64,000 nucleotides of DNA, from the IMG/VR virus record IMGVR_UViG_3300045988_067909, one strand, 5' to 3'. Under the pieces are notes generated by a model, which made no database searches, was not told where the DNA came from, and worked only from the letters and a program-made list of their open reading frames with translations. The DNA is from a virus. Made by a program: the position numbers and the translations under genes. How positions within the stretch are numbered: the stretch's first letter is position 1; every line of letters begins with the position of its first letter. Below are positions 3,262 to 45,060 of this stretch, piece by piece.

Positions 3262-4257
3262 ATGTATAATCAAAACACTGGATTTGCAAATCCAACATTC
3301 AACACTGCTCAAATGCCTGTAGGAAATTACGCACCTGTAACACCTACAGATCCAATGACTCAGGCAGACCGTGAGTTGTTGAAACCTCAACAAAAAGCTT
3401 CTTTCTCTTTGGAAATTCCACCAGAAAAAGAAGCATGGGCAAAATGTCCACACAAAGACCACACTGGCTTCTTAACTGTAGCTGATGGTAAAGGTTGGGT
3501 ACGTTGTACACAATGTGGTGAACGTATTCCTACAACACCTTACAGTGATGAAGAAGTTCAAAATGCAGTGCGCACAATGCGACACATTTGGCAACAAATC
3601 AAATTATTCAGCATTACATTGCCAGCTGAAATCAACACTGAATTTATGATGAGCTTACCAATTGCTGAAAAATCTCTTGATTTGTACCATTTAGCATTCA
3701 AGAACTTTGATGATGTATCTCGTGGTATGAGCCGTGCTCAAAATGTACAACCTCAACAAGCTGTACGTCCAGATGCATTCACATCTTTCGACAATATCTT
3801 GAATGGTAATGTACAACCAGCATATGCTAACCCATGGGGTGCACAAGCTAACCCTAACTTCTACAACATGGCCAATGGTGGATACTACAATGCACAAACT
3901 ATGAATGGTCAAATGCCTGTACAAACAATGCCTCAACAACAATGGCAACAACAAGCACAAGCACCATTCGGTTATAATGCACAACCACCAGTTCAAGGTA
4001 TGCCTAACCAAGGTCAAGGCCAAATGATGAACCAACAACAGCAACAACAAATGATGGGCGGTCAAGCATTTAACCCACAAGCACAAATGCAACAACCACC
4101 TGTATCTCCAGTGCAACAATTACAAAACCAACAAGCAATGGTAGCGAATGCTAACCCATTCAATGCTAATGCTTCCGTAGGTGCAACTGTTCCTGGTCCA
4201 GCTGTAGCAGCTCCACAAAAGGAAACTATTACAACTGACACAATCAGCTTAGGCTAA
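3262..4257 (+). CDS. zinc-ribbon protein with Q/N/M-rich prion-like C-terminal domain
   Basis: RBS ataggaggaaacaatATG at 3262 (the ORF track starts at an upstream TTG). CxxC-type ribbon CPHKDH...CTQCGERIP. C-terminal ~150 aa dominated by Q, N, M, P (QQQWQQQAQ, MMNQQQQQQMMGGQ). Confidence 0.5.
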   Translation: MYNQNTGFANPTFNTAQMPVGNYAPVTPTDPMTQADRELLKPQQKASFSLEIPPEKEAWAKCPHKDHTGFLTVADGKGWVRCTQCGERIPTTPYSDEEVQNAVRTMRHIWQQIKLFSITLPAEINTEFMMSLPIAEKSLDLYHLAFKNFDDVSRGMSRAQNVQPQQAVRPDAFTSFDNILNGNVQPAYANPWGAQANPNFYNMANGGYYNAQTMNGQMPVQTMPQQQWQQQAQAPFGYNAQPPVQGMPNQGQGQMMNQQQQQQMMGGQAFNPQAQMQQPPVSPVQQLQNQQAMVANANPFNANASVGATVPGPAVAAPQKETITTDTISLG

Positions 4258-4273
4258 TTATAAATAAAGACAA

Positions 4274-4315
4274 CCCCATAGGAGTACATCTCCTATGGGG
4301 AATCTTTTATTTTTA
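4274..4315 (+). terminator. rho-independent terminator
   Basis: Hairpin ccccataggagtacatctcctatgggg followed by a T-run. Confidence 0.5.
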
Positions 4316-4329
4316 CTGAGGTGATAAAA

Positions 4330-5061
4330 ATGGCTAATGATTGTTATCAAAACGTAGCATTCTATTCTCCTGTAAGAGAGGAGATAGAGATACTTAGAGA
4401 TAAATTGATATCTCTATATAATGATAAGAAAATCTGGCTACCATATGTTCTTAAAGACTTAGGACTATGGGAAACAGAAGAAGACTTTGCTAAATTATCT
4501 GATGACTGTGAAGATGGGACTACATTACGTGGTGAAATGGTATGGCCACCAGATGATAATGAAATTTGGTCTACTACTTTACCTGATGGTACTCTTGTAT
4601 GGTATTTCCAAACAGAGTATTGCAATAAGTGGACATATATTACTACAGGGTTTAATATTCTGATAGATAAGATAGTCCCTAATAGTAGTATTAAGTTTGT
4701 CTACTATGCAGAAGAACCTGGCTTTGCTATATATGATACTAATGACAAAGATCATATTATCTTTGATGATACAGTGAATGTAGATTTAGGCTGGAGTAAA
4801 AAAGAAGAAGGTAAAGATAAACCAGAATACTTTAGCATGTGCGATAATATGTATTATCCACAGACTTATAAGGACGTACCTAAGTATTTGAATGACGTCC
4901 TTAGAGACGAATTCAAGATTACAAACGTTAAACCATTTGTGCCATCAATGTTTTGTAAACCTGGTGAATCCATAGAAACAAGCTTTATGGAATATATTGA
5001 AGAAGAGCTTGGGGGTACCATTGAATGGTGCAATATACAGCCTTTCAATTATGTAGACTGA
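4330..5061 (+). CDS. hypothetical protein
   Basis: RBS gaggtgataaaaATG at 4330. About 244 aa. Followed by hairpin aaagccccagcaatggggcttt at 5067-5090. Confidence 0.5.
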   Translation: MANDCYQNVAFYSPVREEIEILRDKLISLYNDKKIWLPYVLKDLGLWETEEDFAKLSDDCEDGTTLRGEMVWPPDDNEIWSTTLPDGTLVWYFQTEYCNKWTYITTGFNILIDKIVPNSSIKFVYYAEEPGFAIYDTNDKDHIIFDDTVNVDLGWSKKEEGKDKPEYFSMCDNMYYPQTYKDVPKYLNDVLRDEFKITNVKPFVPSMFCKPGESIETSFMEYIEEELGGTIEWCNIQPFNYVD

Positions 5062-43433: not shown

Positions 43434-43844
43434 ATGAAACTTATAAAACGTCAATTCGAAGAAAATGCTTATGTATCCACAGTAGCCATCCCAACTACAG
43501 AGGTGGAGCGCAAAATGATCCAAGCATTAAAGTACGATTTGATTTCTGAGGAGCCAGAAATTTGTAACTGGCACCCAGAATGGTTAGGCGAAAGCCTAGC
43601 CATTGAATATGCTAATGCGCTTGGACATAGTTGGGTTGACTTCTATGGTACTGATGAGTACATGGTAGTAGTTGATCCAGAGGGCACGTATGTTATTACT
43701 GCAACCCCTAGTAATTTAGAAACATTGATTGCAGGTTATCGCCTACTTGGTCGCCATCGTAAGGTGGCAATGATCTTGAAAAAGATCAAGAAGCTTGGTA
43801 TTGAAGACATGGTATCAAACATGACACCAGGCCGTCAAGCATAA
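43434..43844 (+). CDS. hypothetical protein, paralogue of 39347-39805
   Basis: Shares VAIPTTEVER, ALKYD and IAGYRLLGRHRKVAMILKK blocks with the 39347 gene. Confidence 0.5.
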   Translation: MKLIKRQFEENAYVSTVAIPTTEVERKMIQALKYDLISEEPEICNWHPEWLGESLAIEYANALGHSWVDFYGTDEYMVVVDPEGTYVITATPSNLETLIAGYRLLGRHRKVAMILKKIKKLGIEDMVSNMTPGRQA

Positions 43845-43849
43845 AAATA

Positions 43850-43896
43850 TAGGGTAGAGACAATGTCTCTACCCTAATCTTATTTTATTTTTTTAA
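43850..43896. terminator. bidirectional terminator
   Basis: Hairpin tagggtagagacaatgtctctaccctaatc followed by a T-run. Convergent with the minus-strand thyA gene ending at 43893. Confidence 0.5.
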
Positions 43897-44204
43897 ACAG
43901 CAACTACCATAGGGAGTTTACCCATATGGAAGTAGTTATCCACAATTACGCTATCTGGAGTAAAGTCATAGAAGTCTTGTACACTACCATTAATAACCAA
44001 TCTAGGCTCTTGTGTTGGTAGATTACCAGACTCATAACGTTTAATTTGTTCTTGTAAAGCTTCTATATGATTCTCATATATATGCATATTATTTACGATA
44101 TGAGTAAACTTACCAGGTTTAAGTTTACATACATGAGCTATCATATGAACTAGCATAGCGTATTGTGTTGTATTGAACGGGATTCCTAATCCCGTATCCC
44201 CCGA
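43893..44204 (-). CDS. thyA: thymidylate synthase, exon 2 (C-terminal part)
   Basis: SGDTGLGIPFNTTQYAMLVHMIAHVC...VAV parallels E. coli ThyA [26 protein letters not shown]...VAI. Reading frame continuous with exon 1 after intron removal. Confidence 0.8.
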   Translation of the reverse strand, partial: SGDTGLGIPFNTTQYAMLVHMIAHVCKLKPGKFTHIVNNMHIYENHIEALQEQIKRYESGNLPTQEPRLVINGSVQDFYDFTPDSVIVDNYFHMGKLPMVVAV

Positions 44205-44491
44205 CAAAGTGTTCTAGTATGGTCGTTAATCATACTACGTTCTCTTATGAACTGCTATATATTTCTATATAGATCAGACTATATCACGATCCGTCCCTGG
44301 TAGGACCCCAAACGTTTCCACCCACTTAGGTGTACTCTACTCACTTACAGATATACTGTATGCTTTCGATAGTCGTTGAACACAAATCTATTATAGATTC
44401 TTCGTAAATGATTATCGTATAAGTAAATTATACGACGTTCCATTTTTAGTAAGGTTATTCGATGTATATTACTATACAAAGGCGCCCGTTA
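44205..44491 (-). other. group I self-splicing intron (no ORF) interrupting thymidylate synthase
   Basis: The 5' exon ends in U (…CAGCGU) and the intron ends in G (…ACUUUG), as required for group I splicing. Intron RNA contains R-like GUUCAACGACUAUCG (plus coords 44363-44382, reverse complement). S-like GAUAUAGUCUGAUC (44271-44284, reverse complement) pairs with R as GACUA/UAGUC to form P7. The 287 nt are too short for a homing endonuclease. Confidence 0.8.
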
Positions 44492-44980
44492 ACGCTGGAG
44501 GAGTATGCAGTTTAATTTATCTTCTTGAACATCCCATAGTGTCTCATAAGCACATGGTTGTAGTGCCATATCTGGGAGATCTTCTATGTTCCAGAGGGTA
44601 ACTATCATACGTCTGCTATCTGGATCAGTTTTAATAGTATTGATAAGATTGTCTAGTTGATTGTATTTAGCAATCTGATATCCATAGGCTTTGCCTATAG
44701 TACCATCTTCTCTCATCCATTCATCCCATACATGACAACCCATCTTTTGTAGCTCACGTACATCATTGGATTGCATTTGCCAGATCCATAATAGTTCTTT
44801 AAGAGCAGTCTTAGCTGCTACAAACTTAGATGATAAGATAGGGAATTCTTCTTGTAAATCAAACTGCATGATTTGGTGTGGTAACTTATATGTCGGAATA
44901 CCTGTACGGTTATTACTATATGTACCGTGGTCTAAGATATTCTTTACAATATCAATATACTGCTTATCTGCGGTTCTCAT
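44492..44980 (-). CDS. thyA: thymidylate synthase, exon 1 (N-terminal part)
   Basis: [42 protein letters not shown] parallels ThyA [38 protein letters not shown]. Catalytic-Cys context [24 protein letters not shown] matches [24 protein letters not shown]. Confidence 0.85.
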
Positions 44981-45060
44981 TTATATACCTCCTGTGGAAT
45001 TAAAAAAAATATATTTATATTAGGGTGTGAACTCTATATTAAATTACAATGTGGTGATAT

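Follow-up and report, generated by a model that had tools for sequence, protein, structure and literature searches.

What interrupts the thymidylate synthase gene (thyA) of a large tailed phage within an active-site motif, and is one enzyme still made from it? The question is raised by a 64,000-nucleotide (nt) stretch of viral DNA, IMG/VR record IMGVR_UViG_3300045988_067909, called the window below and meaning this whole stretch. Here thyA is encoded on the minus strand in two parts, 44980..44492 and 44204..43893, with a 287-nt insert between them. The insert belongs to the group I intron family and is very probably removed from the transcript to give a functional thymidylate synthase (ThyA). 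The gene and its insert are laid out as follows.

44988..44993, minus strand: Shine-Dalgarno-like AGGAGG, 7 nt 5' of the thyA ATG, read from the sequence
44492..44980, minus strand: thyA exon 1, ATG at 44980..44978, 163 codons, 3' end CAG CGU (Gln-Arg); Pfam PF00303 positions 1-168, 184.7 bits
44205..44491, minus strand: group I intron of 287 nt without an open reading frame (ORF), recognized by Rfam RF00028, by relatives with and without the intron and by covariation
44205..44205, minus strand: terminal G of the intron (ωG, nt 287), kept in all thyA-intron relatives
43893..44204, minus strand: thyA exon 2, beginning UCG GGG GAU (Ser-Gly-Asp), stop at 43895..43893; PF00303 positions 169-266, 103.4 bits

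Read as it stands, the DNA holds a 163-residue minus-strand ORF (44489..44980) that ends ...NCILLQR and is closed by TAA at 44491..44489, and another (43893..44207) that has a nominal TTG start and continues SGDTGLGIPFN... (SGDTGLGIPFNTTQY...). When the two exons are joined they encode a 266-residue protein that matches the Pfam thymidylate synthase profile, PF00303, over positions 1-266 with 305.7 bits (E value 3e-91). The junction falls between profile positions 168 and 169 (QR|SGD). Among solved structures the best match is Bacillus subtilis ThyA (E value 1e-61); its alignment with the joined protein runs from end to end and is ungapped at the junction. A preliminary description of this DNA, made from its letters, had placed a clean break of the ThyA frame between Gln-Arg and Ser-Gly-Asp, and the profile and the ungapped join confirm it. 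The catalytic Cys is retained (residue 143, in the ALQPCAY of exon 1, where PCA starts at 142), as are the DSRR arginines and the QRSGD, PFN and HIYENH motifs.

Ten intron-containing alleles could be compared. The spliced reading frame is intact in all ten and the polymorphic codons are mostly synonymous, 49 versus 12 in exon 1 and 36 versus 11 in exon 2. No Shine-Dalgarno sequence for exon 2 was found upstream of it, inside the intron, and its nominal TTG start also falls within the intron. Because both exons show synonymous bias, no spliced frame is broken and exon 2 lacks its own ribosome-binding site, ThyA appears to be made from the interrupted gene. For annotation, thyA in this phage should be entered as one spliced gene for 266 residues, neither as two fragments nor as a pseudogene.

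The last base of exon 1 is U (44492) and the last base of the insert is G (44205), and the insert opens with an in-frame UAA, its first three bases. From the DNA alone the boundaries could slide by one base, intron base 1 and exon 2 base 1 both being T; the boundaries 44491..44205 were chosen because group I introns end in G. They agree with the 287-nt gap, preceded by U and ending in G, that had been described. The proposed lack of coding capacity is also borne out: no ORF was found in the insert, the longest stop-free stretch in all six frames being 47 codons. A 44-residue TTG ORF within the intron (44345..44479) was rejected as a gene; it overlaps P2-P7.1.

A cmscan search of 501 nt around the insert (44100..44600) gave a match to the Rfam model Intron_gpI (RF00028) with 52.4 bits against a gathering score of 50 and an E value of 1.5e-12. 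The match spans the full model (positions 1-253), which corresponds to 44501..44255 on the minus strand. Thus the group I assignment of the preliminary description holds under the covariance model it had named. The same short-stretch search returned a plus-strand SNORD47 match (16 bits, E value 3.4), which was dismissed as chance. A profile search of the whole window found no further copies of this intron family.

Related phages carry the gene with and without the insert. A search of IMG/VR with the spliced protein yielded 58 loci, the closest of which have 94-99% protein identity and lie on contigs of up to 267 kilobases (kb). Six of them (L003-L007 and L014, 96-98% protein identity) have an uninterrupted 798-nt gene that is shorter by exactly the 287 nt, and eight others (L017-L024) have an intron of 286-288 nt with identical boundaries. 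Compared with the intron-less alleles, the insertion is base-exact and without target duplication. The insert is not a chance resemblance, given the Rfam E value of 1.5e-12 and the existence of close relatives that have the gene minus the 287 nt.

Two further loci have a longer intron. In L016 (IMGVR_UViG_3300045988_061487, 3490..4612), also one of the closest loci, the same intron with unchanged boundaries is 1123 nt long; its surplus of 826 nt sits in loop L6 and codes for a 272-residue protein with GIY-YIG, NUMOD3 and I-TevI-type DNA-binding domains, which matches the solved catalytic and DNA-binding domains of I-TevI. In L054 (IMGVR_UViG_3300008611_000006, 3589..4737), from a more distant phage whose ThyA is 61% identical, the intron occupies the same QR|SGD site and is 1149 nt long, with a 268-residue GIY-YIG ORF in L6 that is 55% identical to the L016 protein. 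The P6a stem is kept in both L016 and L054 with a different sequence. These two introns encode a homing endonuclease; the window intron, with its maximum of 47 open codons, does not.

The RNA of the insert can be drawn as a complete group I structure, P1 to P10, as the preliminary description had proposed, and compensatory changes in relatives support the helices. Intron nt n corresponds to window position 44492 - n, and the elements are these.

44482..44495, minus strand: P1 and internal guide, exon GCGU (44495..44492) with nt 7-10 GCGC (44485..44482), U·G at the splice site (U44492)
44488..44486, minus strand: P10 guide, nt 4-6 CGG, pairing with exon-2 UCG
44202..44204, minus strand: P10 exon-2 strand UCG, from the sequence, with compensatory UCA/UGA in L054
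44463..44478, minus strand: P2 hairpin, nt 14-19/24-29, GUAA loop; 100% of cells paired, 4/6 pairs change on both sides, also found by RNAalifold
44449..44454, minus strand: P3 5' strand, nt 38-43, CCUUAC; register from homology, 4 pairs change on both sides
44308..44313, minus strand: P3 3' strand, nt 179-184, GUUUGG; from the covariation count
44406..44445, minus strand: P4 (nt 47-52/81-86) around P5 (nt 56-64/70-78); covariation, G59-C75 replaced by A-U in L022
44380..44405, minus strand: P6 (nt 87-89/110-112) and P6a (nt 92-98/102-108); 8/10 pairs change on both sides
44367..44381, minus strand: J6/7 and P7 5' strand, GUUCAACGACUAUCG, P7 being nt 117-122; fits the Rfam consensus
44343..44363, minus strand: P7.1 hairpin, nt 129-136/142-149; 97-100% paired, 5 pairs change on both sides
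44319..44332, minus strand: P7.2 hairpin, nt 160-164/169-173; CACCU/GGGUG in the window, CACUC/GAGUG in L016
44288..44307, minus strand: P8 hairpin, nt 185-189/200-204; found by RNAalifold, 98.6% paired, 3/5 pairs change on both sides
44272..44287, minus strand: J8/7 and P7 3' strand, GUGAUAUAGUCUGAUC, P7 being nt 211-217; fits the Rfam consensus
44255..44272, minus strand: P9 hairpin, nt 220-226/231-237, GAAA loop; 100% paired, 3 pairs change on both sides
44215..44252, minus strand: P9.1 (nt 240-243/250-253) and P9.2 (nt 255-261/271-277); 98-100% paired, 7/7 P9.2 pairs change on both sides

All core helices from P3 to P9 are placed, with P7 in a pseudoknot with P3. The R-like element (GUUCAACGACUAUCG, 44381..44367) and S-like element (GAUAUAGUCUGAUC, 44285..44272) pointed out in the preliminary description do pair, GACUA with UAGUC, and this pairing is P7. 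P9.1 and P9.2 lie past the 3' end of the Rfam model. In L054, P1 is the same as in the window, and the P10 guide is UGA, which fits its exon 2, UCA.

Covariation was assessed in an alignment of 14 introns: the thyA introns of related contigs, L054, the thyA intron of the Bacillus phage β22, and compact introns in lysin and capsid genes. The last were located through a core motif, AACGACTATCGAAARCA, that is present in at least 120 viral contigs. Standard pairs fill 90.3% of the cells, and shifting the 3' partners by 1-3 columns lowers this to 26-43%. Covariation scores 0.465 versus at most 0.096 for slid partners, 53 of the 85 pairs are changed on both sides, and none of 500 shuffles matched any of the observed measures. 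RNAalifold, run blind on the same alignment, recovered P2, P6, P7, P7.1, P7.2, P8, P9, P9.1 and P9.2. The P7 region itself hardly varies: five of its six pairs, and the sequence UGAUAUAGUCU in the J8/7-P7 3' region, are invariant across all 14 introns. Compensatory change is seen even within the population, in the P5 pair that is G59-C75 in the window and A-U in L022.

The T4 nrdB and td introns, both labelled group IA in the T4 record, resemble the 3' half of the window intron with 28 and 21 bits. Because of this similarity and of the P7.1/P7.2 and P9.1/P9.2 extensions, the predicted layout is assigned to subgroup IA, within which it may be IA2-like.

The loop of P9.2, UUAACGACC (44222..44230), repeats the J6/7-P7 strand UCAACGACU (44371..44379). 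The loop motif is kept in relatives and in T4 td (GAUUAACGACC), and the loop may make a tertiary contact. The motif is, in addition, complementary to the P5 sequence GUCGU, and this in the window only.

With this structure, established group I chemistry predicts how splicing would proceed. The pre-mRNA would fold, and exon-1 GCGU would pair with the guide GCGC to form P1, with the U·G pair at the splice site. A free guanosine in P7 would then attack after U44492. P10 would align the exon-2 UCG, the terminal G (44205) would enter the G site and the exons would be ligated to ...CAG CGU UCG GGG.... The predicted product is a single ThyA of 266 amino acids, and unspliced RNA would be expected to stop translation at the UAA of the first three intron bases.

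Several observations weigh against so simple an account. P1 has just four pairs and P10 just three. At the centre of P3 the window clade has two adjacent U•U mismatches in a register that is canonical in the relatives. The structure was drawn partly from the sequences that were counted, which favours it in the slid-partner control and bears on the 90.3% figure. Finally, the Intron_gpI match is only 2.4 bits over the gathering threshold and is lost when the whole window is scanned: cmscan of the whole window gave no match at all, neither at the gathering threshold nor at an E value ≤ 0.01. We attribute the empty scans to the speed filters of Infernal, which are tighter with more sequence, and regard them as an artefact and not as counter-evidence. 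The preliminary description had taken the absence of an Intron_gpI hit as grounds for abandoning the intron; here that rule would misfire, since ordinary whole-window scans give a false negative. As a point of method, genome-scale Rfam scans can overlook compact AT-rich phage introns that pass the threshold locally.

Another register of P3 (P3 as nt 38-42/182-186, P8 with 3 pairs) was rejected, as RNAalifold and the per-pair counts favour P8 as nt 185-189/200-204 together with the P3 given by homology. The slipped P3 has no mismatches, but it cuts P8 to 3 pairs; a slipped P3 in the window clade is possible. Because P3 is irregular, unaided splicing of this intron would be less certain than its identity. 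The catalytic core may be weakened by P3, and the intron may depend on a helper.

Three other explanations have to be set beside a self-splicing intron in a working gene. The insert could be an intron by descent that is not self-sufficient, needing a host or phage protein or a translating ribosome, or one that splices poorly and so throttles thyA. The two U•U mismatches in P3, the short P1 and P10 and the marginal Rfam score all fit such a reading, as does the observation that in vivo splicing of the T4 introns is aided by translation and RNA chaperones (review PMC3984707). The same P3, however, is present in all ten members of the clade including the endonuclease carrier, the exons are under purifying selection, so that enough ThyA is evidently made, and the remaining helices are intact and covary; on balance we consider a dependent or poorly spliced intron improbable. 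Much less probable still is a dead or truly split gene, with a decayed intron remnant or junk as the insert, at a locus that is a pseudogene or a source of two polypeptides. Gene callers do give two ORFs, and a UAA does stand right after exon 1. Such a locus would not be expected to keep synonymous bias in both exons and intact spliced frames in ten alleles, nor to break through the dUMP-binding motif and leave exon 2 with a nominal TTG start inside the intron and no ribosome-binding site, and compensatory changes keep the ribozyme helices even between near-identical variants.

The remaining alternative, that the insert is no group I intron but a group II intron, a miniature transposon or insertion sequence, or sequence that ribosomes bypass, has nothing specific in its favour beyond the insert being small and non-coding. 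The sole Rfam match is to Intron_gpI, the core sequences and helices are homologous to those of the T4 td, nrdB and β22 introns, and the insertion is base-exact without target duplication. The only well-studied case of ribosomal bypassing is T4 gene 60, and 287 nt is far above its 50-nt gap. We give this alternative almost no weight.

How did a group I intron without an endonuclease gene come to lie in this gene? It would be the endonuclease-less form of a mobile intron, and L016 likely represents the mobile parent of the ORF-less intron in the window. The GIY-YIG-bearing form probably spread the intron by homing, dragging with it a short stretch of the upstream exon. Around the insertion site the two groups of alleles differ. 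Every intron-containing allele has the junction CTC CAG CGT|TCG GGG, and every intron-less allele has ATx CAA AGA TCG GGA, which encodes the same Gln-Arg-Ser-Gly and has A at position -1. Only seven differences in the 801-nt gene are fixed between the groups, and six of the seven lie at -19, -10, -9, -4, -3 and -1 (Fisher p 9e-7). Of the four exon bases in P1, three (-4, -3 and -1) are among them; G at -2 is common to both groups, as the Arg codon requires.

The state of the intron does not follow the relatedness of the flanks. Upstream, the intron-less loci L003 and L014 match the window with 97% identity (about 2.1 kb aligned), and the intron-containing L017, L021 and L023 with 81-84%. Because the fixed differences cluster at the site and the intron state does not track the flanks, these sequences argue that the intron would have moved or been lost repeatedly in this population. 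Presence and absence of the intron together with the upstream clustering would fit past homing as well as selection for P1; we consider homing probable.

It is also conceivable, if somewhat doubtful, that the synonymous recoding of the empty-site alleles (CAG CGT to CAA AGA, plus -9, -10 and -19) is selected endonuclease resistance, so that these sites would not be naive. Under resistance, the recoded bases would serve P1 pairing and, by analogy with I-BmoI, cleavage, a proposal that we put forward just as tentatively. If true, there would be an arms race carried on through the synonymous codons of an invariant active-site motif, and one population of very large phages would show all stages of the homing cycle at the catalytic Arg codon. 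New here is a natural series of empty site, intron with endonuclease gene and intron alone in closely related uncultivated phages, which can be used to study intron gain, endonuclease loss and co-conversion. Also new is the way in which fixed synonymous differences cluster immediately 5' of the site.

The surrounding sequence is that of a large tailed phage, with a DNA polymerase, an SbcC-like nuclease, a tail sheath and virion proteins encoded in the window, which has a G+C content of 34%. Within a long run of ORFs on the plus strand, thyA alone is on the minus strand, and a hairpin lies 16 nt past its stop codon.

43850..43876, no strand assigned: perfect 12-base-pair hairpin with T runs on both strands; 4 terminator-like sites versus 0.6 expected

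From its sequence and position this hairpin is predicted to be the terminator for both thyA (minus strand) and the converging plus-strand ORF 43434..43844.

When the gene was compared by megablast with 50,697 phage records, the exons had no relative there and the intron core had only short matches. A sequenced close relative of the phage is thus missing from that collection. The nearest non-phage-like relatives of the window's ThyA, Veillonella and Megasphaera enzymes among them, share 67-74% identity with it, and deposited phage enzymes share at most 50%. These identities hint at a Veillonellaceae host, or at a thyA acquired from one.

In a scan of a genome collection with a 34-nt intron segment, a contig labelled Nitrospiraceae was considered as a clue to the host and set aside as uninformative, only 35 nt being in common. 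The contig, of 3.9 kb and from a metagenome-assembled genome (CAZFOG010000501.1; L182 739..773), has an exact 35-nt match to the P7'-P9 segment of the intron and no other similarity. Probably this is a mis-binned phage contig that carries one more member of the intron family.

Phage thymidylate synthase genes with group I introns have been known since 1984, and the Arg|Ser site since the work on β22; the kind of element found here is thus already known, and the understanding of intron function is unchanged. The nearest known counterpart by position is the β22 intron (L31962.1), which is said to have been described by Bechhofer, Hue and Shub in 1994. In a three-way alignment of the window, β22 and T4 ThyA, the intron of β22 and that of the window share one column, which follows the Arg of QR|S. 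The preliminary description had proposed a site distinct from that of T4 td but close to it, of the kind reported for a Bacillus phage thy intron. This was correct, and the site is in fact identical to that of β22, where exon 1 ends GUC CGU and exon 2 starts AGU AAU GAU.

Beyond the gene and the site, the β22 intron shares with that of the window the fold, the P7.2 hairpin, the J8/7-P7 sequence and a UAA at the intron start. It scores 84.5 bits on Intron_gpI, and its P1 (CCGU/GCGG, as compared with GCGU/GCGC in the window) differs by one compensatory pair at -4. The ribozyme sequences, in contrast, are barely similar (13 and 9 bits by nhmmer), β22 lacks the P7.1 hairpin, and the host phages are unrelated, their ThyA proteins being 40% identical. 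The β22 intron has 392 nt and carries an ORF remnant that the Rfam alignment places in the loop of P8, whereas the window intron has 287 nt and no remnant, and its relatives have their ORF in L6. The 41-residue β22 remnant (L001 1004..1129) shares 55% identity with the C-terminal end of the L016 endonuclease. Because one ORF lies in the P8 loop and the other in L6, they were placed independently in the two ribozymes. The common site does not prove common descent of the ribozymes, since that of the window is closer to introns of other genes (58-72 and 28 bits). Gene, ribozyme and ORF would thus have partly separate histories, and the original β22 paper reportedly reached the same conclusion.

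The Bacillus mojavensis thyA intron, which encodes the GIY-YIG enzyme I-BmoI, offers a second comparison. The I-BmoI target in the intron-less B. mojavensis thyA has GCC CGT before the site, as inferred from the substitutions G-6T, C-5A, C-4A, C-3G, G-2T and T-1G (PMC3161791), which would place its site after the same Arg codon as in the window. The L016 endonuclease has the domain set of I-BmoI (GIY-YIG, NUMOD3 and I-TevI-type DNA-binding), and the critical base for I-BmoI, G-2, is kept here in both intron-containing and intron-less alleles. Unlike the B. mojavensis intron, that of the window has no endonuclease gene. A 2025 survey of the Bastillevirinae found a few thymidylate synthase introns, one of them with a GIY-YIG/NUMOD3 endonuclease (PMC11878797).

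In T4 td (NC_000866, subgroup IA2) exon 1 ends UUC UUG GGU, exon 2 starts CUA CCG UUU AAU, and the 1017-nt intron contains the I-TevI gene. Its site (FLG|LPFN) is 7 codons (21 nt) downstream of that in the window, in keeping with the earlier statement that it lies a few codons downstream, before LPFNIA. The td core is like that of the window in AACGACUAUC, GAUAUAGUCU and the P9.2 hairpin with its loop GAUUAACGACC; the similarity is confined to the 3' half (21 bits).

Another interrupted phage ThyA was examined as a candidate. That of Bacillus phage Kioshi (MH638312.1; L002 492..2138) was matched in two pieces but is an unrelated case; it is a single ORF of 548 residues, and the locus has no group I match. 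The insert in the protein is in frame, about 270 residues long and near Pfam position 90, a position other than that of the window, and has no Pfam match; it may be intein-like.

The closest full-length relatives of the window intron are compact introns of lysin, capsid and terminase/portal genes in uncultivated phages (IMG/VR loci L061, L062, L100, L158, L160 and L172), with 58-72 bits for the lysin-gene introns. They have all helices in common with the window intron and are the source of most of the covariation, but they lie in other host genes and sites and have a longer P7.1. Where they have an endonuclease it is of the HNH type and lies between the 5' splice site and the guide. In the introns of CHAP-type lysin genes (L158, L160, L172 and L062) the HNH-type ORF (…NCRWVTHSHNMLNRKGF…) ends just 5' of the guide, before the 3' strand of P1, and in L061 and L075 only its last few codons remain. 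The six compact introns resemble the lysin-gene introns reported in Staphylococcus phages.

Set against these systems, the intron in the window is a third independent group I intron at the Arg|Ser site of thymidylate synthase. It strengthens the view that this stretch of the active site is a recurrent landing pad for introns driven by GIY-YIG endonucleases.

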